Below, in pieces: positions 1,806 to 58,280 of a stretch of DNA of 64,000 bases. The notes beneath the pieces were generated by a model, which was not told the DNA's origin, searched no databases, and worked only from the letters and a program-made list of their open reading frames with translations. A program made the position numbers and the translations under genes. Source of the DNA: an uncultured virus (IMG/VR IMGVR_UViG_3300042934_000354) (taxonomy: Duplodnaviria > Heunggongvirae > Uroviricota > Caudoviricetes); IMG/VR virus record IMGVR_UViG_3300042934_000354. The stretch is one strand, 5' to 3'. The stretch's first letter is position 1; each line of letters starts with the position of its first letter.

Positions 1806-1879
1806 AAGGGTATTCCGCAAATTGCGGAGTGCCCTTTTTATATACAAAAACTAACAGGGACCCTCTGGGGTCCTTTTTG
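1806..1879 (+). terminator. Two tandem intrinsic terminators
   Basis: GGGTATTCCGC-aaatt-GCGGAGTGCCC-TTTTT and GGGACCCT-ctg-GGGTCC-TTTTT. Confidence 0.65.
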
Positions 1880-1900
1880 CATGCCAAAAGGAGGGTTAAA

Positions 1901-3505
1901 ATGTCCAGCATATTCAACACGGACGCCTGGAAAAAGGCTGTGCAGACGTACAAATCCAAGTCTCCAACCCCGTCTGTACCTTCAACGCCGATTGGTGCGC
2001 TTGCGGGAGTGAGCCAACCTGCACCGCAGCCAACACCCGCCACACTTCCGCCAGCAGCAATACAGGCCGCCAGCAACGTGAGGTCCGGTAAAATGTCTGT
2101 ACCAACAGTCCCGGAATCCGCAAAGGTCGCAGCGCAGAAGATGGTAACCAGGACATCCCAGCAACCTCGTACTGAGCAAGCACTGTCGGCACAGGCGGAT
2201 CTCGTGAACACACCGTTCAGCTACGACCCTACCTCTGATCCGGCCTATCAAGCAGCACTACGGGCCGCACAGCAGACGCTTGAGGTAAACCAGAAGAATA
2301 CAAACGCGCAGCTACGTGCTACGGGGCAGGGAAAATCCTCTTACTCCGAAACGGTAGCCAATCAGTTAGCGAATCAAAGTTCGGAGAACATCGCAAATAA
2401 CGTATTACCGGTATACGCGCAGCAGGCCTACCAGCAGTACCAGGACAGCATCGGCAACCAGCGTAACCTGTACAGTGACTACAACCAGCAGGACTTCCAG
2501 AATCCGATTACAGAGTCCAGCGTAACCGGTAATTATATGCCTGCCGAAGCAACTGCAGCCTACAAGCAACTAATAGCTAATAAGCAAGCCGCAGAGTCAC
2601 CAACGATCACCCGGGATGAACGTGCAGCCATCAGCAGCGAAACGGACGCACTCCGGGCCACGCTGAAGCGTCTTGGCATTGATATCAGCGGACTGGGTGC
2701 AGATAAGACATCGGCACAGGCAGGGGCGGTTAATCCAGGTATTCGCACACTGGCCGGACAGAACCAGGACTTGGCTGCAAGCAATCAGACGTTCAATCAG
2801 AAGCTTTCCACGCGGCAGCAGGACTTTAACGAAGGGATCACAATGGCTGATCTCACTGGATCTATCAATGGTAAGGCAACCACGGCAGAGCAGCAGCGGC
2901 AACTCACAAATCTCTGGACCGTGGCTGAACAAACCGGAACAATACCAGATACATTGGCCGATCAATATGGCATCCCACGGGGAACACAGACTCAGTCAGC
3001 GAAACAACTCGCAGCTCAAATTGCGAATGATGTTCGTGGGCTCGACATATCACAGCAGAATGCAGACACATCACAAGCCAACGCAAGCAGCAGCATAACC
3101 GGTAACACGTTCAACCGATACCTTGATATCTGGAAGGCCACCGGAACCGCGCCATCCGGATTAGAGGCGTATGGTGTAGAGGCTGGATCTCCGTGGTACG
3201 AAGGTGCACAAAACATTAAAGAAGGCGGGTTAACTGTTAACCAAGTAATTGACAATGTTAAATCTTTGTATCAGGAACCCATTACTAGGAAGGAAATAGA
3301 TCCTTCCACTTTAAAAATGATAGAAACAGATACAGGCAAAACAAAGATAACTTCAGACCCGGCTCAAAGGAAAAAAATGTTCGACAATGTAGTCGATTCC
3401 GGTTTAGGCAATAACGAAACGCTTCAAGCCCTGAATTCACTCGGATTTACTAAAGCCGAAATCCAAAAGTTTTACGATGAAGGAATCCAATCATCGGGGG
3501 AGTGA
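1901..3505 (+). CDS. Putative internal virion/DNA ejection protein (Q/A-rich)
   Basis: AGGAGG SD before ATG 1901; homolog of 45038-46546 (FSYDP.DPAYQAAL, IRTLAGQNQDLAA); position matches podoviral ejection genes. Confidence 0.7.
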   Translation: MSSIFNTDAWKKAVQTYKSKSPTPSVPSTPIGALAGVSQPAPQPTPATLPPAAIQAASNVRSGKMSVPTVPESAKVAAQKMVTRTSQQPRTEQALSAQADLVNTPFSYDPTSDPAYQAALRAAQQTLEVNQKNTNAQLRATGQGKSSYSETVANQLANQSSENIANNVLPVYAQQAYQQYQDSIGNQRNLYSDYNQQDFQNPITESSVTGNYMPAEATAAYKQLIANKQAAESPTITRDERAAISSETDALRATLKRLGIDISGLGADKTSAQAGAVNPGIRTLAGQNQDLAASNQTFNQKLSTRQQDFNEGITMADLTGSINGKATTAEQQRQLTNLWTVAEQTGTIPDTLADQYGIPRGTQTQSAKQLAAQIANDVRGLDISQQNADTSQANASSSITGNTFNRYLDIWKATGTAPSGLEAYGVEAGSPWYEGAQNIKEGGLTVNQVIDNVKSLYQEPITRKEIDPSTLKMIETDTGKTKITSDPAQRKKMFDNVVDSGLGNNETLQALNSLGFTKAEIQKFYDEGIQSSGE

Positions 3506-3924
3506 TAAGCCCTACGGCTTCGGCTAGTGGGGCTAAATCAAACCAATATTTAGGCGGAACACTTAAAGACAAGGGAGACGTATTTGAAGCAGCAGCAGCA
3601 AAAGAGGGTATCGACCCTGCATTGTTAAAAGCTATTGCGGTACACGAAACAGGAAATGGAACTAACCCAGGTTCTAAAAATAGGAACAATGTGGGCGGCA
3701 TGATGCGCTCAGACGGCAAAGGGCAGCAGAGTTTTGAAAGCATTGATGAAGGCATCTATGCTCTGGCGTCCTTGTTAAGACGGATGTACATCAGTCAGGG
3801 GTTAGATACAATTGAGAAGATTCAAAAGCGATATGCACCGAACGGTGCGGCTAATGATCCAACTAATCTAAACAGTTACTGGACGAGTGGAGTTAAAAAG
3901 TACTACGACTTATTCTCGAAGTAG
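3502..3924 (+). CDS. Peptidoglycan hydrolase domain (GH73 glucosaminidase-like), probably expressed as a -1 frameshift extension of the upstream gene
   Basis: AIAVHETGNG...NNVGG...F.SI.EGI...KRYAP...W motifs; no well-spaced SD. Confidence 0.7.
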   Translation: MISPTASASGAKSNQYLGGTLKDKGDVFEAAAAKEGIDPALLKAIAVHETGNGTNPGSKNRNNVGGMMRSDGKGQQSFESIDEGIYALASLLRRMYISQGLDTIEKIQKRYAPNGAANDPTNLNSYWTSGVKKYYDLFSK

Positions 3925-3934
3925 GAGGTGAACC

Positions 3935-6900
3935 ATGACACTTGATTTCGAAGCACTACGCAAGAAACGCGGCGTGACCACTTCAGGAACAGGGGAATTT
4001 GATTTTGATGCATACCGCAATCGGAAAGTTACTGAAACGCCGGATGTTGAAAGAGTAACCGTTAACCCTATCTTGAAGAGTACGCTCAGTGGAGTGGGGA
4101 TCGGTGAAAAGCCAATGGAATTCCCTACTTATAGCCGTGCTGTTACGCCGAAACCAGAACCGAAAAAAGAAGAAAAAAGCACACTGAGCAAAGTCCTGGA
4201 TAACGTCAATGCATTTACGGACCGTGCAGCGAGCGCCACGACATTCGGCGGTACCGACCTTGTGGATCGATTGTTTGAGAAATTTGGACCTAAAGCATAT
4301 AGTGACGAGCTTAAAGAAAAAAGAGAGCGTTCCGAAAACCTTGGAGCAGCTGGGGCCGCAGCAGATGTGCTCGGCTCTCTGGTAAGTGGGCAGGCGGCAT
4401 ACAAGGCGGCAGGTGCGGCAGTAGATCCTTTAATCAAAACGTTACCTAAATTGACACAAAGTTTGATACGTGGAGGCGCTGCCGGTGCGGCGTTTGAATT
4501 TCCGCGGCAGGCTAATCAAGAAGCTGCGGAGTACCTGGGTGGAGCGCAGCAGAGTGTCCCGCAGCGCCTTAAAAATGTGGGCTTATCGGCGGCTCTTGGC
4601 GGTCTCACTGATTTAGGTATTGGCGCAGGCGGTCTCGCTGCATCTGGGATCAAGAACCCTGTGCTTGGTAAAGCGGTGGGCGGCGGTATCGGCGTAGGTA
4701 GCTTGGGCGCTGCACTGGGACTTGCAAATGAAGTCCAAGAAAAGGCGTCAGGACAACAACAATCTTTTGGTGGCAGGCTGGCGGATATCGGAAAGTACAC
4801 ATTGGCCGGGGCTGGATTAGGGATTGCTGGAGGTACAGCGGCAGCTACATTTATGCGTAACAAAGGTGTTCCGGAAGAAACGATTGCTGAAGTTCTCGCG
4901 CTACCAGAAGGACGCGGAACGATCCGTCAATCGGCTGCAGCTGAACGTGCCAGCGTACCGGCCGGAACTGATCCAATCATTAACCCATCTGACTTTACTC
5001 CGGAACCTCTGGGATTGCCGCAAGGTAACACTGTGGGGCCGACTGTGGCGCGCCGGGCAACGCAGACGAATGTTTATCGGCAGAAGTTTGAGAACCTCAT
5101 AAGAGAGGCACAGAAGCGTGAATTCAGCCCGGGACGCGAGGACATCGAGCTTGAAAACCTATGGTCTCAGATGGCTGAACGCAACGATCCGGGCTTAGAT
5201 GAACTGGTAGATCTGGCCTATCCGAAGCGCACCAATGTGCCACAACGAGGTATGGTTGGCGCGGCCAGGTCAAATCAGGAAATGCGTGAAGTGGCAGGAG
5301 TGGGCAATCCAGTCCGGAGCAGTGCCGACCGTAACCCTTCACAGGTGATCAGCCCGGCCGCGGCACCACAGACAGTTGCCGGACGCGCCGGAGGTACACC
5401 GCGAGCTGAAATATCTAGTATTCCGGATGTTCCTGTTTCTTCAGCACCGAGACAGCCCGTCCAGGAAAATGTTCCAACCCAAGCCATGAGCCGGGAACAG
5501 GACATCATGAATCGTATTAACAATTTGACACAGGATGATATTGAATACATCCAAAGTGGCCAGTTTGATCAGACGAAGTTACCTCCGGAAGTCTCGTCTA
5601 TCAGCAGACAGGAGCCAGCGGTAAGAGAACAAACTCCACTTGTAGATGCTGCTCCGGATGTAAATGCTCAACCGCAGAGCCAGGACATGTTCACGGATCT
5701 GTTCGGCGATCAGGGGTTAGGCATTTCATCCGGAGGAAGCTCAGCAAGAGTCGGTTCCGGACCGGTAGACACCGCAGATCAGATTGTCCGGCGCGGTATC
5801 AAGAACGACAAGCAAGGCATAAAGCAGGCGGCGGCAGCACAGGCTCGGGCGACCTATCAGAACCTTGTCGATAACCTTGATCCATTAAAACGGATCAGCG
5901 GTGACACATATGAGTCTGCTATGGATGCCACCCGGGCCAATAACCTTGCAAATACTGTTGTTCGTGACAAATTCGTGAATCTTGAAGGCGAAGTGATCGG
6001 CAACAGTTTGAACGATATCTTTAAAAAAGTGGCGCGGGGACAGGATAAGAACTTTATTGATTACCTCACGCTGCGACATGCAAAAACGCGCATGGCCCGG
6101 GGAGAACGGGTGTATGCAGAAAACCTTGATATGACTCCGGATAAGGTGCAGCAGCGCATCGACACATTAAACTCCCGTTACCCTGGATTCGAAGAGATCG
6201 CGAAGGAATGGGATAAATTCAATGATAACGTGCTGCGGGAGATCGGCGTAAAGGAAGGGTTGCTCTCGAATGAACTGTACAATGCGCTGCGGAAGAAGAA
6301 TCCGAATTACTCCCCAATGCGCCGGCAGTTCCTTCGTTCAGAAAAGCCCGGAAAGAACTTCATCCAGAAGACAACAAAATCATCATTCAGCGGTCAGAAA
6401 GCACCAATTCAGCAAGTCAGTCCTACCGGGTCCGTCCGGAACATCGTAGACCCGCGCAAATCCACCATTGAGTCCGTGGGCGCATGGACTAATGCAGCCC
6501 TACGTAACCGGACGATGCAGTCTATGGTAGATGCGATCAAGCGAGATCCGGAGGCATTCAAAGGTGTCGCTGAGATCATCCAGCAGCCGAAGAGTAAGGT
6601 GAATCTCAAGGATGTACTCACCAATGGTGGTCAGGACGACTTCTTAGAAGCGCTGGATGCAGACTTTAAGGACCTGTTCAGCACCGCAAAGGTAGACGGT
6701 GATAATGTAGTTCGAGCAATGGTCAACGGGGAACCGGTACACATCAAGGTACAGGATCCGGAGATTGTCAAAACGCTAATCGGCATGGGTCCACAGGCTT
6801 CCAACATCCTTATTGACACCATGTCTGCATTTTCTAACGCGACCAAGCGCGGTGCAACCGGTCTGCTGGCCCCGGCTTTTGCCATCAAGGGAGCGACAAT

Positions 6901-8386
6901 GGACCTTGCACAGTCTGCTATTCAGTCCAAAAACCCACCGAAGCAGATTGCATACACAATTTATTCCATCTTCAGCGGTATAGGTGATTCGCTGGGCATT
7001 AAAGGACTACGGAATTGGGCGCAGGAGTACCGCCGTGCTGGTGGTGGATACACAGCATCGCTAAAAGGGGATCGGCGCTTAGACACGGGAATATCCGATA
7101 TGACACGATACCCAAAATTGTCACCACAGAATGCAGTTAAAATTGGAGTAAAGGCCGTAAAAGCACCATTCAAAATACTCGAAGGAATAGGTAATATCGC
7201 TGAAAATGCACCGCGTATTGCTGCATCGAAAATAGAACGGCAGAGCCTCGGTAACCAGATCACGCCGCAGAATATCAGGCAGGCCATGAGCGCCGGGCGT
7301 GAAATTACTGTTAACTTCAGCCGGAAGGGTGCACTGACCCGGGATATTGAAGCATTCGTGCCTTACAACAATGCTGCAGTTCAGGGAACGTATCGTGTGC
7401 TACGTGCATTTAAGAATAATCCCGTCCGGACTGTGGCCGCAATCGGCACGCTAGCGGTACTTCCGAAGCTTTATGAATATTCCAAATTCGGTGATGATCC
7501 GGACTATCAGAATCTACCGGCCCGAGACCGTACGCGGTTCCTAATCGTCAAGAAGAACGATGATGGTACATTTGTCCGGATCCCAATGGAGCCAGCCTAC
7601 AACAGCTTTGGGGAGGCGACTATTGAAGCCTTAAGGTATTTCAAGGACAATGACCCAACGGCCTTCAAGGGAACAATGGACGCTTTGGCGAATGCCTGGA
7701 CACCTCCACTTGTGACTGGTGCGCTGCAAGGAGCAACTAAGGGTGGCGGAGCAGAGGGAAGTATTGCTGGGGTGGTCAATTCAACAGTAGCCGCACCGTT
7801 TGTCGCCTCTGTAGCAAACCAAAGTTTCACCGGTGCTCCTATCGTATCTCAGTCTCTCCAGGACCGCAGCAGACCGTATCAGTATGATGAACGCACCAGT
7901 GCTGTAGCGAAGAAGTTAGGACAGACGCTGGATATGTCGCCTCAGAAGGTAGATTACATTATTAAGGCGTACGGTGGAGACTTGGCCCGATTGGTTTTAC
8001 CATTGACTTCCGATCTTGGACAGGGCAACGTCCGAAACACGCTGCTGAAGAACTTCATTGTAGATCCGGAATTCAGCAACACCTTGACGGATGACTTCTA
8101 CGATGCCAAGGACAAACTGAATCAGGCATACGCTGATTTCAACGAGGCCGGGGCAGAATTACCTAAGTGGTATGATGATGACCTGAGAAAGGCGCTTAAT
8201 TCGACTGCGAAAGGATCGGTATCGAAGGAGCTTGCCGGACTGCGCGATTACAAGAAAGAAATCACCGCTGATAAATCACTGACAGACAAGCAGCGCACCG
8301 AGAAACTCCGGGAGGTTCAGAAGCAGATCAACGAAATCTACATCAACATCAACTCTGCGCTGAAAGAGTATGGGGTAATAAAATGA
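3935..8386 (+). CDS. Large ejection/polyvalent protein with LPD38-like C-terminal region
   Basis: 1483 aa; REITVNFSRKG...FVPYNNAAVQG and RIPME motifs; homolog of 46967-51514. Confidence 0.7.
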   Translation: MTLDFEALRKKRGVTTSGTGEFDFDAYRNRKVTETPDVERVTVNPILKSTLSGVGIGEKPMEFPTYSRAVTPKPEPKKEEKSTLSKVLDNVNAFTDRAASATTFGGTDLVDRLFEKFGPKAYSDELKEKRERSENLGAAGAAADVLGSLVSGQAAYKAAGAAVDPLIKTLPKLTQSLIRGGAAGAAFEFPRQANQEAAEYLGGAQQSVPQRLKNVGLSAALGGLTDLGIGAGGLAASGIKNPVLGKAVGGGIGVGSLGAALGLANEVQEKASGQQQSFGGRLADIGKYTLAGAGLGIAGGTAAATFMRNKGVPEETIAEVLALPEGRGTIRQSAAAERASVPAGTDPIINPSDFTPEPLGLPQGNTVGPTVARRATQTNVYRQKFENLIREAQKREFSPGREDIELENLWSQMAERNDPGLDELVDLAYPKRTNVPQRGMVGAARSNQEMREVAGVGNPVRSSADRNPSQVISPAAAPQTVAGRAGGTPRAEISSIPDVPVSSAPRQPVQENVPTQAMSREQDIMNRINNLTQDDIEYIQSGQFDQTKLPPEVSSISRQEPAVREQTPLVDAAPDVNAQPQSQDMFTDLFGDQGLGISSGGSSARVGSGPVDTADQIVRRGIKNDKQGIKQAAAAQARATYQNLVDNLDPLKRISGDTYESAMDATRANNLANTVVRDKFVNLEGEVIGNSLNDIFKKVARGQDKNFIDYLTLRHAKTRMARGERVYAENLDMTPDKVQQRIDTLNSRYPGFEEIAKEWDKFNDNVLREIGVKEGLLSNELYNALRKKNPNYSPMRRQFLRSEKPGKNFIQKTTKSSFSGQKAPIQQVSPTGSVRNIVDPRKSTIESVGAWTNAALRNRTMQSMVDAIKRDPEAFKGVAEIIQQPKSKVNLKDVLTNGGQDDFLEALDADFKDLFSTAKVDGDNVVRAMVNGEPVHIKVQDPEIVKTLIGMGPQASNILIDTMSAFSNATKRGATGLLAPAFAIKGATMDLAQSAIQSKNPPKQIAYTIYSIFSGIGDSLGIKGLRNWAQEYRRAGGGYTASLKGDRRLDTGISDMTRYPKLSPQNAVKIGVKAVKAPFKILEGIGNIAENAPRIAASKIERQSLGNQITPQNIRQAMSAGREITVNFSRKGALTRDIEAFVPYNNAAVQGTYRVLRAFKNNPVRTVAAIGTLAVLPKLYEYSKFGDDPDYQNLPARDRTRFLIVKKNDDGTFVRIPMEPAYNSFGEATIEALRYFKDNDPTAFKGTMDALANAWTPPLVTGALQGATKGGGAEGSIAGVVNSTVAAPFVASVANQSFTGAPIVSQSLQDRSRPYQYDERTSAVAKKLGQTLDMSPQKVDYIIKAYGGDLARLVLPLTSDLGQGNVRNTLLKNFIVDPEFSNTLTDDFYDAKDKLNQAYADFNEAGAELPKWYDDDLRKALNSTAKGSVSKELAGLRDYKKEITADKSLTDKQRTEKLREVQKQINEIYININSALKEYGVIK

Positions 8387-10518: not shown

Positions 10519-10578
10519 GTAAGGCCTACCCATTAACCGGGAGGTCTTTTTACTTTATAAATAGAAGAAAACCGCCTT

Positions 10579-10632
10579 ATCGTGTGCGAATTGATATCTA
10601 TGGAAAACCGTACATAACAATCTACACACGAT
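10579..10632. other. attP-like serine-integrase site, central dinucleotide AA
   Basis: 54-bp imperfect palindrome ATCGTGTG...TTGATATCTATGG-AAAA-CCGTACATAACAA...CACACGAT abutting the integrase stop. Confidence 0.75.
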
Positions 10633-12116
10633 TAATTGAAAATAACACTCTGAATAGACGCCGGAATGAACTTTCCTTTCTTGCCATGTGCTTTATCGAG
10701 TGGTGTGTATAACGTGATTTCCTTGAAGATATCCAGGATCATTTCATGCTTATCTACATCATCCATCTGGTCCCATACTTCAGGCAGGCCGAATAAGATT
10801 TCATTCTGCTCTGCAAAATCCTCTATGTGCACATCCGGCATTTTAGCGAGCTCATCCATCAGCAATTCCTCATTCTGCTTTTCATCGGCGTTGTGATCCC
10901 GCAGTTCCTCTTGGGAGATCAAATCATCGGCATACATACGCTGCCACTTCTTGCGCCGGTCCCGGACCTTATCTAGCTCTCTTACCAGATCCTTGCGCAG
11001 ATCAACCACCGGATCTTCTTCAGCCGTTGCGGCCAATTCCCGGATCGCTGAATAATCTGTGGATAACCTTTCGCCAATCCATTCCAGCAGCAGCGACTCC
11101 ACCAACTCCTGGCGAAACATTGGCATGGTGCATCCTTTACCAGTCTGGCGCCCGGAGCAGATATAAGACAGAATCTTATTGTAGCTGCCATCCTGGCGTT
11201 TGTTCTGGTGGTACCGGCCGGACATCTTCCCGCCGCACTTGCTGCACTTCAGCACACCGCTGAACCAGTATTCCCGAACCTTAGAGTGTCCGGTGAATGA
11301 TCGGCGCTTCATTTCCTCTTTGTGCTCCTGATACTCTTCCCAGGTAAAGGTTAAATCCTGTGTCCCATCCACGATCAGTACATCAACGTGCTCTTCCATT
11401 TTCCGATGTGCGTATTTCCCATTTGCTTTTTTAGTCCCGTATCTCCGTTTGCCTGCATAGTAAGGATTATCCAGTACATACCACACACTGAAGGAGGTCC
11501 ACCGGTACCCGCGCCGCAGCAGGCCCATATCGTTCAGTTTGGTTGCCACGCCTTTTAGTCCCAAGCCCTCCAAGTAAAATTTCCTTACCAGCCGATTCTG
11601 CGTGTATTCCTCTTGTACAATCTTTTCAAATTTGTCATACCCGAAGTTAACCGGACCGCCCGGACGCCGACCATCGTGGACCATCTGCTCCATGCCCATG
11701 CGTACGCGCTCTGCTGTGTTCTCACGCTCCCACTGAGCGATATCAGCCACTAGCCGGATAAATAGTCTACCTGTCGCTGTGCGTGTCTCAAACGACTCCG
11801 TACAGCTCTGAAACTTGACGTTATGGGACTCGAACATCTTGATGAGGTTATCGCAGTCACTGGCGGACCGGGTCATACGGTCAAGCTTATACACCAACAC
11901 CACATCAAATGCATGTATCTCCACATCTTTAATCATACGCTGCATCTCAGGGCGCTTCAGATCCTTTGCAGACCACCCATCATCTATGTACACCTCAGTG
12001 ACTTCCCAGTCCTGAGAATCGGCGTAGGCCAGCAGCCGGCGCTTCTGTGCGTCAATCGAGAATCCTTCAGCTGCTTGCTCGTCTGTAGATACCCTGATGT
12101 ATATTCCTGCTTTCAC
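10632..12116 (-). CDS. int: Large serine recombinase (integrase)
   Basis: YIRVST catalytic motif, VYKLDR.TRS, recombinase domain, CSKCGG zinc ribbon, coiled coil. Confidence 0.96.
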   Translation of the reverse strand: MKAGIYIRVSTDEQAAEGFSIDAQKRRLLAYADSQDWEVTEVYIDDGWSAKDLKRPEMQRMIKDVEIHAFDVVLVYKLDRMTRSASDCDNLIKMFESHNVKFQSCTESFETRTATGRLFIRLVADIAQWERENTAERVRMGMEQMVHDGRRPGGPVNFGYDKFEKIVQEEYTQNRLVRKFYLEGLGLKGVATKLNDMGLLRRGYRWTSFSVWYVLDNPYYAGKRRYGTKKANGKYAHRKMEEHVDVLIVDGTQDLTFTWEEYQEHKEEMKRRSFTGHSKVREYWFSGVLKCSKCGGKMSGRYHQNKRQDGSYNKILSYICSGRQTGKGCTMPMFRQELVESLLLEWIGERLSTDYSAIRELAATAEEDPVVDLRKDLVRELDKVRDRRKKWQRMYADDLISQEELRDHNADEKQNEELLMDELAKMPDVHIEDFAEQNEILFGLPEVWDQMDDVDKHEMILDIFKEITLYTPLDKAHGKKGKFIPASIQSVIFN

Positions 12117-14724: not shown

Positions 14725-14816
14725 TAAATGCTCTCACTACAAACTATCAATCTAGTATCAATTATATACCGACATCAATCGACTGAAAAGGATAAAACTT
14801 CCAAGGAGGCTACAGC

Positions 14817-14960
14817 ATGAAACTGCAACCACAAGGCAAAAACCCTGGATTATCACCGCAGGCGTGGTACAAATTGCACGTGAGATTAGCGCGGATGAAC
14901 TTGAAGTACCGGAAGCAGCTGATGGAGGCATACGTGAAAGGGGAGAAGAAAGTTGGTTGA
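14817..14960 (+). CDS. Small basic protein (47 aa)
   Basis: AAGGAGG SD; identical protein at 58137-58280. Confidence 0.7.
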   Translation: MKLQPQGKNPGLSPQAWYKLHVRLARMNLKYRKQLMEAYVKGEKKVG

Positions 14961-45037: not shown

Positions 45038-46546
45038 ATGGCGACAACGTTAGGAAATGGCGTAGTGGACTACAACACAGCCGCAGCAGAAGCCAAGAAG
45101 AAACTCGTGCAGAATCAACTAAAGATCAACAATGATCCCGGATATGTAGCCAGTGAGCAGCAACGAGCCTTACAGGTGATTGCGCAGCGACAAGCACAGG
45201 GACTGGACACCAGCGGCCAACAGAAGTACCTCACGCAGCAGCTTGGGTACAAAGCTCCGGCAGCAACTACAACCGCAGCACCGGCAGCGCCAGCGGTCGC
45301 AGCGCCTAAGACAAATGCACAGCAAGGATCTGATTACATGGCACAGATGGCGGCTATAGCTAACCGTCAGGTCACACCGTTTTCGTATGATCCCGAAACT
45401 GATCCAGCCTACCAAGCAGCATTGAAACGAGCCAGCGCGAATATTGATGCTGGAACCTCGCAGGTACAAGCAGAAATGAATCGGAGAAATATTCTGAATA
45501 GTTCTATCACGACTGATAGATCCGCAGAAATAGGTGCTTTAGAAAAAGCTAACGTGGAGACAACCGTCCTACCGCAGCTGATGCAGCAAGCTTACCAGAA
45601 ATATGCGGATCAATTGGCACAAGAGCAGCAGCAGTTCGCTAACCTTGGCACTGTAGCGAATTCCTACCTCAGTGAGGATCAACGTGCTATCGATAACACC
45701 AATACCACCGCAGGGCTCACGGGTAACCTGCCGGGCGGCGAGCAGGCGCAGCAGCTTTACTCTCAACTAATGTCCCTGAAGCAGCAGGCCGAGGCTAAAG
45801 GCATCACCGCAGCAGACCGCAGCAAGTTAAGCAATCAGGCTGACGGTATCCGGGCTATGCTGTCTACCATGGGCGTGGATATCAGCAAACTGGGAGCGAA
45901 TACAAACTCCGTCACAGCAGGACAGATCACACCAACTATTCGCACGCTGGCCGGACAGAACCAGGACTTGGCAGCACAGAATCAGACATTTAACCAAGCC
46001 ACTCAGACCCGCCAACTGGATACAGCGGATAAGCAGTACGGTGAACAGTTTGCTTACACTAAAGCGCGTGATGCCATCTCTGATAAGCAATGGCAGGCTA
46101 AGTTTGACGAGGATGTACGACAAAACGGCCTGAGTTATGGCCTACAGCAATTGTCACAGCAGAATGATCAGGCATACCGTCAAGCTCAATTGGCGCTCTC
46201 CCAGGACGATAACGCCCGGGCATGGGCTACGCTTGATTATGACCAGTCACAACCGGGATCAACAAAGACCAGCAGTTTAACGCCTAACCAAGTATTAGAA
46301 AGTGTGAAATCATTGTATTCTGAACCTATTTACACGACAGGAACAGAATATGACGCTAATGGTGAATTGGTCCAGAAAGATACTGGAAAAACAAAAATCA
46401 CAACAGATTCTGGGAAAAGAAAACAAATGTTTGAAACTGTTGTTGACTATGGGCTAAGTGATTCAGAGACCAATCAAATTCTTTTATCACTTGGCATGAC
46501 CAAGAAAGAAATTGATTCACTCATTAAGCAATATTCGGGGGAGTAA
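45038..46546 (+). CDS. Putative internal virion/DNA ejection protein
   Basis: SD before ATG 45038; homolog of 1901-3505; ends TCG GGG GAG TAA. Confidence 0.72.
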   Translation: MATTLGNGVVDYNTAAAEAKKKLVQNQLKINNDPGYVASEQQRALQVIAQRQAQGLDTSGQQKYLTQQLGYKAPAATTTAAPAAPAVAAPKTNAQQGSDYMAQMAAIANRQVTPFSYDPETDPAYQAALKRASANIDAGTSQVQAEMNRRNILNSSITTDRSAEIGALEKANVETTVLPQLMQQAYQKYADQLAQEQQQFANLGTVANSYLSEDQRAIDNTNTTAGLTGNLPGGEQAQQLYSQLMSLKQQAEAKGITAADRSKLSNQADGIRAMLSTMGVDISKLGANTNSVTAGQITPTIRTLAGQNQDLAAQNQTFNQATQTRQLDTADKQYGEQFAYTKARDAISDKQWQAKFDEDVRQNGLSYGLQQLSQQNDQAYRQAQLALSQDDNARAWATLDYDQSQPGSTKTSSLTPNQVLESVKSLYSEPIYTTGTEYDANGELVQKDTGKTKITTDSGKRKQMFETVVDYGLSDSETNQILLSLGMTKKEIDSLIKQYSGE

Positions 46547-46962
46547 CGTCCGGCGTAGCATCCGTTAAGGTGCCGACAAAATACGCCGGAGTAATATCGT
46601 CGGCAACAAGTAAGTATGGACTACCAGATGGGTTGCTTGCTGCTGTCGCCAGTGCGGAGTCTAGCTTCAATCCTAACGCAACCAACAGCAAGAGCGGAGC
46701 CTCAGGCATGTTCCAGTTCATGCCAGCGACAGCCAAGGGCTACAATATTGATCCATACAACGTGAATCAAGCTGCAGACGCCGCTGGGAAAATGTTGAAC
46801 GGACTCATTGCCAAGTATGATGGAGATGTTTCCAAAGCACTGGCAGGCTACAACTGGGGCGGTGGGAATGTAGACAAGGCAGTAAAGAAATACGGCAACA
46901 ATTGGTTACAACATGCGCCTACAGAAACAAAGAACTACATCAAAAAAATATTAGGACGGTGA
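46543..46962 (+). CDS. Lytic transglycosylase (SLT/GH23) domain, probably a -1 frameshift extension
   Basis: AESSFNPNA...GASGMFQFMP.TA...ALAGYNWG...ETKNY; frame open from the slip site; no SD at GTG 46570. Confidence 0.85.
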   Translation, partial: VTSGVASVKVPTKYAGVISSATSKYGLPDGLLAAVASAESSFNPNATNSKSGASGMFQFMPATAKGYNIDPYNVNQAADAAGKMLNGLIAKYDGDVSKALAGYNWGGGNVDKAVKKYGNNWLQHAPTETKNYIKKILGR

Positions 46963-46966
46963 GGAA

Positions 46967-49900
46967 ATGGCCACTTTTGACGCAGTTCGCAATCGAAAAA
47001 GGGGTGAAGAGGCCAAGCAGCGCGTGCTGTCTCGGACCTATTCACCTGCAGAGGAACAGCCAGAAAGTTCATTTTCTGCCGTCCGTAATCGAAAGGTTAC
47101 AGATACAACATCTACAGACTCAGCAGAATCATCCAGAACAAAGGAGATCCTTGGTGACACACTGGCAGGAGTCGGTATTGGTTCACAGCCGCAGGGATTC
47201 AACACTACTCCGGATCCGCAGAAGACGATTGATTTCAAAGCAGAACAATCTAAGAAAAACGCATCTGTATTTCAGGATAAGCTACCGGCCGCCAACCTGA
47301 TCCAAACCGGCCAGGGAGTTCAATCCACACTGAAGGATAAAGTTCCAGCAGCCAACCTCGTGCAGCAGACCGGACGCGGACCGGCTAATGCTTCAAACAT
47401 CCCTGGAGTTTCGCAATATGAGATCACCAAGAAAGAAATAGCCAACGACTCTGTGCCGTACGCAGTTAAAGCATACGCGAATATCATGAACTACATCACA
47501 CAGGGTAATCCAGCAGTGGTGGCGGTGTCCCGGGCTTTTGCTGGTAACTCTGGTGCGACCCGTAGAGACACTACAAAATTCCCTGTAATTGACAAGGTGA
47601 CCGATGCAATTAACAACTTTGTGACACCTTTTGTGACACCTACAGGTGCGCCAGTGGGCCAAGGCATTATCGGATCAACGTATGGAGCGACAGAGAAGGC
47701 GTTGAGCGGTAAAGCTGGGCAATCCATTCTCAACGCAGCTAGCAAAGTTATTCCGGGTTCACAGAACGTTGCGCGTGTGACAGCCACAGAGGCGCTTGCA
47801 GGCGGCATGCAGGGTGTAGGATTCGGGCTGCAACAAGGACAAGACAGCGGCAACGAAATCGCCCGTAACGCCCTCTTAGGGACCGCGGCAGGCGGTGTAC
47901 TTGGTGGTATAGGCGCTGCAGCCAGCGAAGGACTCACATCTGCACTCAGCAAGATCATGAAGAGATCCGGCCGGGCAGATGATGAAGTCGCCGCAACGCT
48001 GGAAGAAGTATTTACACCTCGTCAGGCGGAGATTGTACCGCAAAGCGAAATCAGAAATAACCTGCCTGAAACGAATCCTTTAGCTCTGCCACAATCACCT
48101 GAACTGTTGGCACTACCACCTGGACGAAGTACAGCCACGACAGCACGTATTGAACAACGTACCAACGTGTACCGGCAGAAGTTCGAAAACCTTATTGCTG
48201 AAGCACAAAAGCGTCCATTAACACCGGGTCGCGAAGACTTGGAACTGGAGAACATATGGTCCCAAATGGCTGACCGCACGGATCCAAGCCTCAACGAACT
48301 GATTGATCTGGCTTATCCGAAACGTACCGCCGTTCCGCAGAAAGGTATGGTCGGCGCGGCCCGAGCCAATCAAGAAATGCGCGAGGTGGCAGGTGTAGGA
48401 AACCCAGTTAAAAGTTCAGCTCCGCAGGTGTTTGCTGATGCTGCTGCACCAACGCAGGTATTGGGCAGAAGGGGTTCGGTTGGTACGTCATCCGAAGGGA
48501 CGATCAGAAGCAGCACTTTGACGCGTGAACAGGAAATCATGAACAAGGTCAATGCAAAGCAGCCTCTGACGCAAGCAGACATTGAGTTTGCCCAAAGTGC
48601 GGAGTTTGATAAAAACAAGTTATTCCCTGAGTCCACGCCTGAGAAATCAACCTATGCCAAAGCGAGACCAGCACAGCCGGAAGTAAAGTCACCTTCTAAG
48701 CCAGAACCGGTAATGAAATCAACTCCGAAAAATGAGGTTCAGGAAGTTGAAGAAGCTATCAAAGCTGTCAATCAGCCTAATGTCCGGGACAAGGTTTACT
48801 CTTACCTGGATGAAGCAGAAAAGGCAGCTAGAGAGCGCATAGCCAAGCGCAAAGGATATCTGAACTCCAGTCCTTTGCCGGAGTGGGCGGACTACGCGGT
48901 GATTATGGCGGCCAAACTCGGTAAGGGAACAATCAAGGTCGCGAACTTCACAGAGGAACTGGTTAAGGAATTCGGTGAATCTGCCCGGCCACATGCAGAA
49001 AAAATACTTCGTATGAGCCGGGAGGAACTGCGTAAACAGGAACGATTGGCGAGTAAAGAAGGTAAATCAGCAGTTGAATTCAATGCTAAACCTGAAGGTG
49101 ATGCCGCCTCGTTCGCTGAGAAAATCAGCCGTAACGCACCGAAAAAGTCAACTCCATTTGCGGAACGGTGGCAAAAGTGGCGTACACAGACTACAGACGA
49201 CCTAGCAGCCTTGGAGACGGTCGAAAAGAACGTTCGTGGTGGAAAGTTATCCAGCGCAGAAGACAGCCTTTATAAGGCAGCTAGAATGTTCAAAGGAGCG
49301 CCGGAACGTGCCAGCCAAATTGTGCAGGACCGATTAGGATCGGTAATCAATAAGGTTGAACAGGCCGGAAACTCCGTGGAGGACCTAGAATTGTATGCTC
49401 TTGCTAAACATGCACAGGATGTGAATGCAGCCGGATATAAATCTGGATTTACTAACCAAGAAATCAAGTCCATTCTGAATGAATTCGGATCTGATGAAAT
49501 GAAAGCAGCACAGCAAGAACTGGTTAAGGTAAACCGCGATATGCTGAAAGAATTGTTGGACAGTGGGGTAGTTTCACAAGAACTATATGATGTGCTGGGC
49601 GAACGTTGGAAGAATTACATTCCGTTGTTCCGAGAAATGGATAATGAAAAGGTAGGGTTCGGCGATGGACTGTCGAGCGCACTTGCCAATGTAACCAGCC
49701 CGATCAAGGCGCTGCAGGGGTCGGAACGAAAGGTCATTGCACCACTGGAAAACATGGTGAAGAACATCTTCCAGAGTGTTAATGCGGCAGAACGAAACAA
49801 GGTGGCTCAGCAGATTACGAAGCTTGCTGAACTGGACGAGAACGGGACATATATCCGCAAACTCACCAATGCTGAACAAGTTGGAGAGAAAAACGTAGTC

Positions 49901-51514
49901 AAGGTTAAAGTCGATGGCAAGGAAGTTCGGTACGAGGTGCAGCCAGAGGTATACAAAGCTCTGATGAACCTTGATCAAGAGTCCAGTAATACGCTGATGA
50001 ACATCCTATCTAAGCCTGCCAGTCTACTACGTGCCGGAGCTACCATAACACCAGAGTTCGCGCTTCGAAACCCGATCCGAGATATTAACAACGCCTTTGT
50101 TGTCTCAGAGAGTGGCTTCAATCCTATTACTGACTTTGGTGCCGGTCTGATACAGACAATCAAGAAGGGACCTCTGTATAAGGACTGGATTGATAACCTG
50201 GGAGCTTACGGTAATACACTTTCGCTGGATAGAAATGTCCACAAAAAAGCCTTAGAAACCGTACTGAAGCAGCCAAATTCAAAGAAATTTGTCAATTTGG
50301 TGAATGGAAAATCACTCATCGGACTGCTGAGGTCGATTTCAGACACAACCGAATCAGCAACTAAGGTCGGAGAGTACCGGGCTGCGCTACGTTCCGGCGC
50401 GAGCAAACAAGAGGCAGCGTATCGTTCGAGGGATTTGATGGACTTTGCCAGGGCAGGATCTAGCATACGCCCAACTAATAGAATAGTTGCTTTTTTGAAT
50501 GCAAACATTCAGGGGAAATCAAAACTTATCCGAGCTATTAAAAACGATTGGGTTGGCGTTACTACTCGAGGGATTGTATCGGTAACGGTTCCGACAATTG
50601 GGATATTCATCTTGAACCACAAGTATGCTAACGATACACAGAAATCCACCATCAGCAACGCCCCGGACTGGATGAAGGATTCATTCTGGTTGATGGCCAT
50701 ACCTGGAACGGATACAGTAGCGCGAATACCAAAACCATTCGATCTGGCAACATTGTTTGCAAATTTGCCAGAAAAAGCACTGTCTTTTGTTTTGGATAAA
50801 GATCCTGAAGCATTCGATGGATATGTAAGGCGATCTATCAAAAGCAATGCTTTACCAACCCAAATATCCGGTATACTGCCAGTAATTGAAGGGATGTCTA
50901 ACTATTCATTCTTTAAGGAAGGATCAATTATTCCTAAGGCAGAGCAAGGATTACAGTACAAAGACCAGTACGATCCGGTTCGCACCACATCTACGGCCCG
51001 GATTATTGCGGGAGGAGTAGATAAATTGACCGGAGGAAAGGGATCGTTCAAGAACTTCAGCTCTCCGCGGGTGATCGATAATACACTGCAGGGCCTGACG
51101 GCTGGACTTGGTAAATATGCCACCGATGCCATTGATATCATTCTTGATAAAACAGGAGCATATGAACGAACCACAAAGCCAGCAAAGTCCATTGAACAAG
51201 CGCCGTTCACAAGATCGTTTCTGGTTGATCCAAATCAGGGCGGCAAGGCTATGGATAAATTTTATTCATTGAAAGACAAACTCACGAAGGAAAAGTCTTC
51301 CTCCAAACTGAATAAGGTTCCGTTCAAAAAACTGAGCGAATTGGAACGGATCAATAATGTTTCCGAAGTAGTGAGCGACATAAATAAATCGATCAAGGCT
51401 ATAGAACGTGGTGAATTGTCAGCCAAGGAAAAGCAATTAAAGATTGAACCTTTAATCAAACGCCGGAATGACTTAGTGCAGCGCGTCACACAAAGCCTGA
51501 AGGACAAAAAATAA
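46967..51514 (+). CDS. Large ejection/polyvalent protein with LPD38-like region
   Basis: 1515 aa; RDLMDFARAG...FLNANIQG, RIPKPF motifs. Confidence 0.75.
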   Translation: MATFDAVRNRKRGEEAKQRVLSRTYSPAEEQPESSFSAVRNRKVTDTTSTDSAESSRTKEILGDTLAGVGIGSQPQGFNTTPDPQKTIDFKAEQSKKNASVFQDKLPAANLIQTGQGVQSTLKDKVPAANLVQQTGRGPANASNIPGVSQYEITKKEIANDSVPYAVKAYANIMNYITQGNPAVVAVSRAFAGNSGATRRDTTKFPVIDKVTDAINNFVTPFVTPTGAPVGQGIIGSTYGATEKALSGKAGQSILNAASKVIPGSQNVARVTATEALAGGMQGVGFGLQQGQDSGNEIARNALLGTAAGGVLGGIGAAASEGLTSALSKIMKRSGRADDEVAATLEEVFTPRQAEIVPQSEIRNNLPETNPLALPQSPELLALPPGRSTATTARIEQRTNVYRQKFENLIAEAQKRPLTPGREDLELENIWSQMADRTDPSLNELIDLAYPKRTAVPQKGMVGAARANQEMREVAGVGNPVKSSAPQVFADAAAPTQVLGRRGSVGTSSEGTIRSSTLTREQEIMNKVNAKQPLTQADIEFAQSAEFDKNKLFPESTPEKSTYAKARPAQPEVKSPSKPEPVMKSTPKNEVQEVEEAIKAVNQPNVRDKVYSYLDEAEKAARERIAKRKGYLNSSPLPEWADYAVIMAAKLGKGTIKVANFTEELVKEFGESARPHAEKILRMSREELRKQERLASKEGKSAVEFNAKPEGDAASFAEKISRNAPKKSTPFAERWQKWRTQTTDDLAALETVEKNVRGGKLSSAEDSLYKAARMFKGAPERASQIVQDRLGSVINKVEQAGNSVEDLELYALAKHAQDVNAAGYKSGFTNQEIKSILNEFGSDEMKAAQQELVKVNRDMLKELLDSGVVSQELYDVLGERWKNYIPLFREMDNEKVGFGDGLSSALANVTSPIKALQGSERKVIAPLENMVKNIFQSVNAAERNKVAQQITKLAELDENGTYIRKLTNAEQVGEKNVVKVKVDGKEVRYEVQPEVYKALMNLDQESSNTLMNILSKPASLLRAGATITPEFALRNPIRDINNAFVVSESGFNPITDFGAGLIQTIKKGPLYKDWIDNLGAYGNTLSLDRNVHKKALETVLKQPNSKKFVNLVNGKSLIGLLRSISDTTESATKVGEYRAALRSGASKQEAAYRSRDLMDFARAGSSIRPTNRIVAFLNANIQGKSKLIRAIKNDWVGVTTRGIVSVTVPTIGIFILNHKYANDTQKSTISNAPDWMKDSFWLMAIPGTDTVARIPKPFDLATLFANLPEKALSFVLDKDPEAFDGYVRRSIKSNALPTQISGILPVIEGMSNYSFFKEGSIIPKAEQGLQYKDQYDPVRTTSTARIIAGGVDKLTGGKGSFKNFSSPRVIDNTLQGLTAGLGKYATDAIDIILDKTGAYERTTKPAKSIEQAPFTRSFLVDPNQGGKAMDKFYSLKDKLTKEKSSSKLNKVPFKKLSELERINNVSEVVSDINKSIKAIERGELSAKEKQLKIEPLIKRRNDLVQRVTQSLKDKK

Positions 51515-53220: not shown

Positions 53221-53281
53221 CGAGTAGGCCATCCTTAACCGGGTGGCCTTTTTTACTTTATATATAGAAGAAAAACGCGTT

Positions 53282-53335
53282 ATCGTGTGCGTCTTGATAT
53301 CTATGGATTACCGAAGATAACAAACTACACACGAT
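53282..53335. other. attP-like serine-integrase site, central dinucleotide TT
   Basis: ATCGTGTG...TTGATATCTATGG-ATTA-CCGAAGATAACAA...CACACGAT. Confidence 0.75.
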
Positions 53336-54819
53336 TAATTGAAAATAACACTCTGAATGGATGCCGGAATGAACTTACCTTTTCGGGCATGTGCTTTCTC
53401 AAGAGGTGTGTATAACGTAATTTCTTTGAAGATATCCAGAATCATGTCGTGCTTATCCACATCGTCCATCTGGTCCCATACTTCCGGTAGGCCAAACAGG
53501 ATTTCGTTCTGCTCTGCATAATCCTCTATGTGGACGTCCGGCATTTTTGCAAGCTCTGCCATCAGTAATTCCTCATTCTGCTTCTCATCAGCGTTGTGAT
53601 CCCGCAGTTCCTCCTGAGAGATCAGATCATCGGCGTACATGCGCTGCCACTTCTTGCGCCGGTCCCGGACCTTTTCAAGCTCCCTCGCCAAGTCCTTGCG
53701 CAGATCAACGACCGGATCTTCTTCTGCAGTTGCGGCCAGTTCCCGGATAGCTGAATAATCTGTGGATAACCTTTCACCAATCCATTCCAGCAGCAACGAC
53801 TCCACTAACTCCTGGCGGAACATCGGCATGGTGCATCCTTTCCCCGTCTGCCGGCCGGAACAGATATAGGATAGGATCTTATTGTAGCTGCCATCCTGGC
53901 GTTTGTTCTGGTGGTACCGTCCGGACATCTTGCCCCCGCACTTGCTGCACTTCAGCACACCGGAGAACCAGTATTCCCGAACCTTTGAGTGTCCGGTGAA
54001 TGATCGGCGCTTCATTTCTTCCTTATGTTCCAAATACTCTTCCCAGGTAAAGGTTAAATCCTGTGGACCATCCACAATCAGCACATCCACTTGCTCTTCC
54101 ATCTTGCGATTTGTGTACTTGCCGTTTGCTTTCTTGGACCCATATCTCCGTTTACCGGCATAGTAAGGGTTGTCCAGTACATACCAAACGCTGAAGGATG
54201 TCCACCGATACCCGCGCCGAAGCAGTCCCATATCGTTCAGTTTGGTTGCCACTCCCTTTAACCCCAATCCCTCCAGGTAAAATTTCCTGACCAGCCTATT
54301 CTGTGTATATTCCTCTTGGACAAGCTTTTCATTCTTGTCATACCCGAAGTTAACCGGACCGCCCGGCCGCCGTCCCTCGTGCACCATTTGCTCCATACCC
54401 ATGCGTACACGCTCTGCCGTGTTCTCACGCTCCCACTGAGCGATGTCGGCCACGAGGCGGATAAATAGTCTACCTGTCGCCGTGCGCGTCTCAAACGACT
54501 CCGTACAGCTCTGAAACTTGACATTGTGGGACTCGAACATCTTAATAAGATTGTCACAGTCACTGGCGGACCGGGTCATGCGGTCAAGCTTGTACACGAG
54601 CACCACGTCAAAAGCATGTATCTCCACGTCTTTGATCATACGCTGCATCTCAGGGCGCTTCAGATCCTTCGCGGACCATCCATCATCAATGTATACATCT
54701 GATACTTCCCAGTCCTGAGAATCGGCGTAGGCCAGCAGACGGCGCTTCTGTGCGTCAATCGAGAAACCTTCAGCTGCTTGCTCGTCCGTGGATACCCGGA
54801 TGTATATACCTGCTTTCAC
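53335..54819 (-). CDS. int: Large serine recombinase (integrase)
   Basis: Same length as, and nearly identical to, 10632-12116. Confidence 0.96.
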   Translation of the reverse strand: MKAGIYIRVSTDEQAAEGFSIDAQKRRLLAYADSQDWEVSDVYIDDGWSAKDLKRPEMQRMIKDVEIHAFDVVLVYKLDRMTRSASDCDNLIKMFESHNVKFQSCTESFETRTATGRLFIRLVADIAQWERENTAERVRMGMEQMVHEGRRPGGPVNFGYDKNEKLVQEEYTQNRLVRKFYLEGLGLKGVATKLNDMGLLRRGYRWTSFSVWYVLDNPYYAGKRRYGSKKANGKYTNRKMEEQVDVLIVDGPQDLTFTWEEYLEHKEEMKRRSFTGHSKVREYWFSGVLKCSKCGGKMSGRYHQNKRQDGSYNKILSYICSGRQTGKGCTMPMFRQELVESLLLEWIGERLSTDYSAIRELAATAEEDPVVDLRKDLARELEKVRDRRKKWQRMYADDLISQEELRDHNADEKQNEELLMAELAKMPDVHIEDYAEQNEILFGLPEVWDQMDDVDKHDMILDIFKEITLYTPLEKAHARKGKFIPASIQSVIFN

Positions 54820-58068: not shown

Positions 58069-58136
58069 TTACTAGTATCAATTATATACCGACACCAATC
58101 GACTTAAAAGGATAAAACTTCCAAGGAGGCTACAGC

Positions 58137-58280
58137 ATGAAACTGCAACCACAAGGCAAAAACCCTGGACTATCACCGCAGGCTTGGTACAAATTGCACG
58201 TGAGATTAGCGCGGATGAACTTGAAGTACCGGAAGCAGCTGATGGAGGCATACGTGAAAGGGGAGAAGAAAGTTGGATAA
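58137..58280 (+). CDS. Small basic protein (47 aa)
   Basis: Identical to 14817-14960. Confidence 0.7.
   Translation: MKLQPQGKNPGLSPQAWYKLHVRLARMNLKYRKQLMEAYVKGEKKVG

Follow-up and report, generated by a model that had tools for sequence, protein, structure and literature searches.

We describe here a gene junction that occurs twice in a stretch of 64,000 nucleotides (nt) from an uncultured virus of the class Caudoviricetes (IMG/VR record IMGVR_UViG_3300042934_000354), referred to throughout as the window. At each copy, in two related prophage-like units designated P1 and P2, an open reading frame (ORF) for a putative virion protein ends at a stop codon directly behind the heptamer G GGG GAG, a stable hairpin begins 5 nt past that heptamer, and an ORF with a peptidoglycan hydrolase (lysin) domain follows in the -1 frame. 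The features of the two junctions are given below; the count in the second line refers to the unique junctions, in the window and in relatives, at which the two ORFs are split between frames.

1829..3505, + strand: upstream gene of P1 in the 0 frame, 558 codons from GTG 1829, helix-rich; the predicted short product
3496..3502, + strand: proposed -1 slip site of P1, G GGG GAG, a heptamer shared by 9 of 36 unique split junctions
3503..3507, + strand: 0-frame stop of P1 (TGA 3503-3505), adjoining the heptamer on its 3' side; these 5 nt, UGAUA, form the spacer
3502..3924, + strand: -1 frame ORF of P1, 140 codons, with a linker and a GH73-like glucosaminidase domain; the long product would be about 698 amino acids (aa)
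3508..3534, + strand: hairpin of P1, candidate stimulator, 27 nt, with an 8-bp outer stem, a 3-bp inner stem and a UUCG loop
45020..46546, + strand: upstream gene of P2, 508 codons, homologue of the P1 gene, with a 100% identical copy in virus record G001
46537..46543, + strand: proposed -1 slip site of P2, G GGG GAG, followed by the stop TAA 46544-46546
46549..46590, + strand: hairpin of P2, with a 9-bp outer stem (UCCGGCGUA/UACGCCGGA) and an inner 5-bp stem, beginning 5 nt past the heptamer
46543..46962, + strand: -1 frame ORF of P2, 139 codons from the slip, with a linker and an SLT lytic transglycosylase domain; the long product would be about 647 aa

The initial annotation had proposed that the two copies share slip site and phase and that each carries a hairpin 5 nt after the heptamer, and both points are borne out. 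The upstream gene ends in TCG GGG GAG TGA in P1 (3494-3505) and in TCG GGG GAG TAA in P2 (46535-46546), with the -1 ORF next in each case. The -1 frame of P1 opens at 3481, 22 nt before the stop, and is closed upstream by TGA 3478-3480, so that the frame change must fall within 3481-3505; that of P2 opens at 46528, 16 nt before the stop, and is open to 46962. The P1 hairpin, AGCCCUAC-GGC-UUCG-GCU-A-GUGGGGCU, encodes SPTASASGA in the -1 frame and folds at -18.2 kcal/mol in RNAfold (z -3.87), with none of 200 dinucleotide shuffles as stable, and the P2 hairpin folds at -20.5 kcal/mol (z -3.95), again with none of 200 shuffles reaching that stability. An antisense ORF of 101 codons (window 3450-3755, - strand) runs across the slip site and into the first part of the P1 lysin ORF; its status as a gene is unsupported.

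The lysin domains of the two -1 ORFs are of different kinds. The P1 ORF matches the Glucosaminidase family PF01832 at 37.3 bits (cut-off 30.2), with three relatives at 42.6-53.9 bits, and scores 17.6 bits against SLT PF01464, below the cut-off of 21.3. The P2 ORF, checked in the same way, matches PF01464 at 85.2 bits and also phrog_342, annotated as 'internal virion protein with endolysin domain', at 5e-28; the two domains are not significantly alike (24% identity, E 0.024). A profile built from eight P1-type domains retrieved 8yxk from the PDB at E 8e-31 and then the GH73 enzymes LytB, Atl, AtlE and the C. perfringens autolysin. The AlphaFold2 (AF2) model of the P1 lysin domain (predicted local distance difference test score, pLDDT, 86.3; predicted template-modelling score, pTM, 0.83) found as its top Foldseek match 8yxk, the glucosaminidase domain of the C. 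difficile endolysin Ecd09610 (TM 0.78), followed by LytB, AtlE and 4qdn, with SLT enzymes only at E > 0.4. Pfam, the PDB profile and the fold search thus agree with the earlier proposal that the P1 domain is GH73-like and not SLT. E49 in the motif HETGNG of the P1-type lysin is invariant in 8/8 sequences and is the putative GH73 catalytic acid.

The upstream proteins of P1 and P2 are homologous and distant (36% identity, E 2e-57). Where the P1 gene starts is uncertain: read from GTG 1829, the longest ORF gives 558 aa, and the database copy P0001 has 534 aa. Searches with the upstream protein returned no Pfam family, only a weak PHROG of unknown function and only unnamed clusters in the protein atlas, and its AF2 model, made of long helices (pTM 0.36), gave 0 matches at E <= 0.001 in a BFVD fold search; across Pfam, PHROG, the atlas and BFVD, neither sequence nor fold linked it to any internal virion protein that has been characterised. 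It is gene order that suggests an ejection or internal virion protein, the gene lying within the block whose products are presumed to enter the particle and to be ejected from it. Homologues numbered 85 in a protein search, nearly all of them Paenibacillus or metagenome proteins. Despite widely differing preceding residues, 56 of these 85 end in Gly-Glu, Gly-Asn or Gly-Lys, and three, of 640-717 aa, carry an SLT domain in frame. Queries with both upstream proteins (tblastn) found no match among 50,697 phage records in a collection of sequenced isolated phages, and since the family is absent from that collection it has probably not yet been looked at experimentally.

The junction in related phages

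DNA of relatives was available for 35 viral-contig loci, 6 genome loci and 14 metagenome loci; a profile search of genome contigs with the small alignment A2 gave 6 loci, 3 of them new. Removal of 9 duplicates and of 5 loci running off a contig end, and addition of the two window sites, left 43 unique junctions, which are related sequences, so that counts and p-values overstate the number of independent events. The lysin ORF is in the -1 frame at 36 of the 43, three are fused in frame (L027, L028 and L035), and four are without a lysin gene; the other split phase (+1) and a separately initiated lysin gene were found at none of the 43. The split lysin ORF is intact at 34 of 36 junctions; the lysin ORFs remain open over 127-208 codons, with strong Pfam family matches. 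The two broken further downstream are L034, in which the frame changes once more within an A-run of the GH73 linker (about 4900-4930), and L045, with a premature stop in its SLT ORF (4159-4314), and either may reflect real decay or a sequencing error. At the lysin-less junctions (L036, L041, L042 and L056) a large gene with its own Shine-Dalgarno (SD) sequence and ATG adjoins directly, and Pfam found no lysin domain in the first ~1000 aa of the large downstream protein of L036 and L041.

A canonical X XXY YYZ heptamer stands in phase at 26 of the 36 split junctions (72%), as compared with 14 of 628 (2.2%) other open frames of >= 100 codons in the same DNA that have one 0-9 nt from their stop, and the 0-frame stop lies directly 3' of the heptamer in 31 of 36. 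The commonest heptamer is G GGA AAC (17/36), followed by G GGG GAG (9/36, both window sites included), A AAA AAC (3/36), G GGA AAG and C CCA AAA (2/36 each), and G GGA AAA, G GGG GGG and G GUU UUU (1/36 each). The nine G GGG GAG sites sit behind six codons (TCG, CAG, GCG, TTG, CCG and AAG), each with a final G, as would be expected because P-site re-pairing requires a G there. Close homologous C-termini alternate between ...YSGE, written with G GGG GAG, and ...YSGN, written with G GGA AAC, which argues that the two heptamers do the same job.

Scanning viral contigs with the pattern GGGAAACTGANNAGCCCC gave 48 matches, 32 within the family and 16 outside it. The scan added 19 unique family junctions, all of the same layout; being selected by motif, they were kept out of the frequencies given here. 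Pfam found no match in three of the non-family pairs. In one unrelated group of viral contigs (L060, L061, L064, L071, L073, L078, L083, L087 and L093) the match lies at 1801-1818, where G GGA AAC TGA AC AGCCCC ends a frame of 136-247 codons and is followed by a -1 frame of 77-83 codons; this may be another frameshift gene pair, possibly tail-chaperone-like.

The downstream hairpin is likewise a general feature, with a stem beginning 4-8 nt past the heptamer in 33 of the 36 split junctions; in L015 the longest helix begins later. The stem arms vary by group with complementarity kept (GCCCCAC/GUGGGGC, GCCCCGG/CCGGGGC, GCUCCGG/CCGGAGC and AGCUCCA/UGGAGCU, as well as CCGGCGUA/UACGCCGG and CCAGCGUA/UACGCUGG). 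In the unguided MAFFT alignment A4, 79.4% of cells are paired against 71.4% when shuffled (0/500 shuffles reach the observed value), and a slid partner gives at most 46.7%. The covariation score of the same alignment is 0.209 against 0.108, with double changes in 7 of 11 pairs, figures that come from related sequences and are no strict probabilities. The P2-type stem has an 8-bp consensus in 6 sequences, with one compensatory pair, G-C to A-U, in 2/6. Codon choice points the same way: over the first 14 codons of the -1 frame, 29 of the 58 glycines are written GGG, compared with 62 of 438 elsewhere, and 18 of the 27 prolines are written CCC, compared with 20 of 170 elsewhere (p ~1e-9 for each, indicative only in related sequences), a pattern indicating that synonymous sites at the hairpin are biased towards pairing. 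The UUCG loop of P1 is common to some relatives, others having other tetraloops, and Rfam returned nothing relevant at E <= 1 around the two window sites.

The initial annotation had also held that the downstream ORF is without a proper SD sequence, and a survey of start codons and SD sequences across the relatives upholds the lack of a usable initiation site. No ATG, GTG or TTG precedes the catalytic motif in 10 of the 34 intact lysin ORFs; in the remaining 24 the best SD duplex averages -3.8 kcal/mol (strongest -6.4), against -8.3 kcal/mol for the start of the next gene (n=33). Upstream of any start codon, the -1 frame already shows a conserved linker, SPTASASGAK-N--L-G-L---GD-F. As for the listed start of the P1 ORF, GTG 3502, which is the only start codon close by, it overlaps the stop (GTGA), the G-run directly abuts it without a spacer, and it exists because the P1 stop is TGA; it is not conserved, since at 7 of 9 G GGG GAG sites the stop is TAA and the triplet hence GTA.

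Enzyme exchange and fused relatives

The idea that the junction is a slot for different enzymes was examined by surveying which domains follow the upstream gene, and four classes emerged among the 36 split junctions: a short SLT subtype (13/36), GH73-like domains (10/36), the P2-type SLT (7/36) and a VgrG3-like C-terminal domain (PF21277; 6/36). The classes were assigned by motif, and Pfam confirmed them in 16 representatives (P1, P2, L075 and 13 split relatives). Exchange can be followed in close relatives. L006, with a GH73 domain, and L004, with an SLT domain, share 94-96% identity in the upstream 400 nt and 87% identity from the slip site through the hairpin; past the hairpin identity is 47-50% in the lysin ORF and 72% in the next gene, which places the exchange point there just 3' of the hairpin. 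L030 and L033, two prophages in one isolate genome record with different cargo (short SLT and VgrG3-like), have upstream genes 78-89% identical up to the heptamer, and their divergence starts with the heptamer. Depending on the relative, a GH73, SLT or VgrG3-like domain follows the P1-type hairpin GCCCCAC/GUGGGGC. Hence the initial view, that slip site, phase and spacer are kept while enzyme and stimulator are swapped, stands for P1 against P2 and does not extend to a general rule, one hairpin type being found with three cargoes. The initial annotation further suggested that such a slot may tune entry to different peptidoglycan chemistries.

In each of the three fused relatives one ORF, 705-719 codons from stop to stop, spans both parts and carries the SLT domain at its C-terminus. 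L028 is collinear with P2, its residues 140-560 matching 121-494 of the 0-frame protein and 583-709 matching 16-140 of the -1 ORF. All three retain a canonical in-phase heptamer and a hairpin at the joint, and there the -1 frame soon meets a stop:

L027, 4826-4832: G GGA AAC; hairpin -19.2 kcal/mol, z -5.9; 2 codons to the -1 stop
L028, 4787-4793: C CCA AAG; hairpin -11.1 kcal/mol, z -3.1; 2 codons to the -1 stop
L035, 4937-4943: C CCA AAG; hairpin -14.6 kcal/mol, z -0.7; 1 codon to the -1 stop

A -1 slip in these relatives would yield the short form, so that the split and fused wirings would both encode a short/long pair. In our view, no other observation speaks as strongly for a functional signal and for a need for both forms as this convergence of two wirings on one predicted product pair.

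Candidate mechanism and competing explanations

Taken together, the comparisons make it very likely that the junction is a programmed -1 frameshift cassette, located where a virion protein gene of podovirus-like Paenibacillus prophages ends. According to the model we favor, a ribosome on G GGG GAG would have the 0-frame stop next and a stable hairpin, 5 nt downstream, at its mRNA entrance. Most ribosomes would terminate there and release the short protein, which has 558 aa in P1 and 508 aa in P2. A minority would slip back by one base, tRNA-Gly re-pairing from GGG to GGG and tRNA-Glu from GAG to GGA with one G-U pair, an event that may involve both tRNAs or the P-site tRNA-Gly alone; the adjacent stop may aid the slip, along the lines of the "shifty stop" idea. 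Slipped ribosomes would then read the hairpin, as a Ser/Thr/Ala/Gly linker, into the peptidoglycan hydrolase, GH73-like in P1 and SLT in P2. The efficiency of the slip would fix the share of enzyme-bearing long copies at a minority, both products would be packaged in the virion, and the enzyme would help to penetrate the wall at entry. The same joint would also serve as the exchange point for the four enzyme classes.

Several observations weigh against this model. The heptamer of the window, G GGG GAG, does not conform to X XXY YYZ in the strict sense: re-pairing in the P site, GGG to GGG, is perfect, and re-pairing in the A site, GAG to GGA, needs a central G-U pair. This mismatch weakens strict membership in programmed ribosomal frameshifting (PRF), not the working model. 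In addition, G GGG GAG has 0 occurrences in the available part of a review (PMC5009743), so that we infer its shiftiness from its recurrence only. The downstream structure is weak in L024 and L029, and the L035 hairpin is indistinguishable from shuffled sequences. Since the hairpin lies within coding sequence, its conservation could partly operate at the protein level; the relatedness of the junctions, mentioned above, inflates every count; and the GTGA overlap of P1 is a classic arrangement for coupling.

Indeed, in a coupling scheme ribosomes would stop at TGA or TAA and restart at GTG 3502 in P1 or at GTG 46570 in P2, releasing a free small lysin and no fusion. Besides the P1 overlap, a G-rich run resembling an SD sequence and the position of the P2 GTG, 24 nt past the stop, speak for it. 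A restart at GTG 3502 suits P1 only, however, and fails on the relatives, where the start is not conserved (GTA at the 7 of 9 G GGG GAG sites, CTG at the G GGA AAC sites), where 10 of the 34 intact ORFs have no start codon ahead of the catalytic motif, and where the -1 peptide is conserved from the slip site onward. Coupling accounts for neither the excess of canonical heptamers over background nor the hairpins, and in-frame fusions exist; we regard it as improbable. A frame change could also arise during transcription, if RNA polymerase added a G within the G5 run and so brought the two ORFs into one frame in part of the mRNAs. Both window sites do have a run of five Gs, and three relatives have runs of A6-7; yet the commonest site, G GGA AAC (17/36), is without a homopolymer long enough, and neither a precisely spaced hairpin nor an adjacent stop is needed for such a process. 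A run of five Gs is itself short for known sites of transcriptional slippage, and this explanation appears highly improbable. Finally, the split could be a product of decay or error, a once-fused lysin having been broken by a frameshift mutation or in assembly so that the downstream ORF is a dead remnant. That fused relatives exist, and that L034 and L045 are broken elsewhere in the lysin ORF, would fit. However, 36 of 36 split junctions shift at the same place and in the same direction, with slip heptamer and hairpin; the lysin ORFs have remained open with strong Pfam matches, the survey showing the opposite of neutral evolution; and P1 and P2, diverged copies at 36% identity, have the same arrangement. 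An origin by decay or error is extremely improbable.

Programmed -1 frameshifting remains the reading we prefer, and a wider role of the joint can be sketched with less assurance. In that role, which we would place just short of probable, the joint would be a reversible recoding module that sets the ratio of enzyme-free to enzyme-bearing protein and works in either polarity, the slip giving the long form where the gene is split and the short form where it is fused. It would double as a recombination joint exchanging at least 4 unrelated or distant domains (GH73, two SLT types and VgrG3-like) between otherwise ~95% identical phages, and it would show G GGG GAG, when placed beside a stop, to be a -1 shift site that occurs naturally in bacteria and can trade places with G GGA AAC.

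Genomic setting and comparison with known systems

Downstream of each lysin ORF lies a gene for an LPD38 polyvalent protein:

3935..8386, + strand: LPD38 polyvalent protein gene of P1, 1483 aa, PF18857 at 5e-40
46967..51514, + strand: LPD38 polyvalent protein gene of P2, 1515 aa

The gene at 3935 has its own ATG and a strong SD sequence (GGAGG; duplex -11.5 kcal/mol). According to Iyer et al. 2017 (PMC5512222), LPD38 is confined to polyvalent proteins of the phage type, for which injection together with the DNA is predicted. The gene content of P2 comprises TerS, TerL, portal, major head protein, tail protein, an internal-virion-protein-like ORF and a serine integrase, and no tape-measure protein was found among its structural genes. 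The window (1-64000) as a whole holds three related prophage-like units in tandem at a spacing of ~43.3 kb, namely the tail end of P1, the whole of P2 and the start of a third; repeats between them include 10547-10846 / 53250-53549 and 14752-14956 / 58072-58276, and the two serine integrases (10632-12116 and 53335-54819) share 96% identity. P2 is the same as virus record G001 (42,176 bp, flagged with direct terminal repeats). The tandem units could be tandem polylysogeny or an assembly running through related phages.

If the model is right, frameshifting would be put to a new use here, setting the number of virion protein copies that bear a wall-degrading enzyme. The findings would further suggest that phages of thick-walled Gram-positive hosts control the stoichiometry of their entry-associated muralytic activity and exchange it rapidly. 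The family also offers recoding research a natural experiment, with eight heptamers, many hairpins, two polarities and four enzyme cargoes at one joint. Because the lysin ORFs are without a start codon, they would be missed or mis-started in annotation and the upstream genes called complete.

Programmed frameshifting in tailed phages is textbook knowledge where tail chaperones are concerned, and also for a small number of capsid and tail genes. The frameshift of the lambda G/GT tail chaperone, which is conserved in long-tailed dsDNA phages, resembles that proposed for the window sites: it is a -1 slip towards the 3' end of a late gene, at heptamers such as G GGA AAG or G GGA AAC, and it yields short major and long minor products at a set ratio (available part of PMC5009743). 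In contrast, G and GT are small chaperones encoded upstream of the tape-measure gene and are not in virions, whereas in the window the upstream protein has 508-558 aa, no tape-measure gene was found, a variable enzyme domain is added, and the lysin and LPD38 genes follow. A tail assembly chaperone pair of the G/GT kind was considered for the junction and ruled out by the large upstream ORF and by the lack of a tape-measure match among the P2 structural genes. E. coli dnaX, which makes tau and gamma, shares the combination of heptamer and downstream hairpin, and a slip in the fused L027, L028 and L035 would give the short form, as it does for gamma; the window sites, however, have the opposite polarity, a slip giving the long form, and the A AAA AAG heptamer and upstream SD-like enhancer of dnaX are not present here.

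Further parallels are the T7 gp16-type internal virion proteins with an SLT domain and other virion-associated peptidoglycan hydrolases, in which a muralytic domain is likewise part of an internal or ejected virion protein. In those cases the domain lies within one ordinary ORF, at the N-terminus in gp16; here it is C-terminal, exchangeable and, as predicted, reached by recoding. Phage-type polyvalent proteins also carry lysozyme domains on proteins predicted to be injected, and LPD38 is encoded in the gene just downstream here. They differ in being in-frame multidomain fusions, the word 'frameshift' occurring 0 times in PMC5512222, whereas here the lysin would be joined to a neighbouring gene via predicted recoding. 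Searches of open full-text literature, including the available part of the review PMC5009743, found no description of a frameshift-appended muralytic domain save one sentence on Alteromonas virus vB_AspP-H4/4, a podovirus in which a putative slippery sequence with a -1 shift joins the endolysin and internal virion protein genes 39/40 (genome announcement PMC5658483). The order there is reversed, with the lysin first and the virion protein second, and the proposal consists of one sentence on one genome, with no comparative or structural analysis. The class of mechanism proposed for the window is well known; new, as far as searched, would be its setting among these genes, the exchangeable enzyme cargo, the occurrence of both polarities and the G GGG GAG site.

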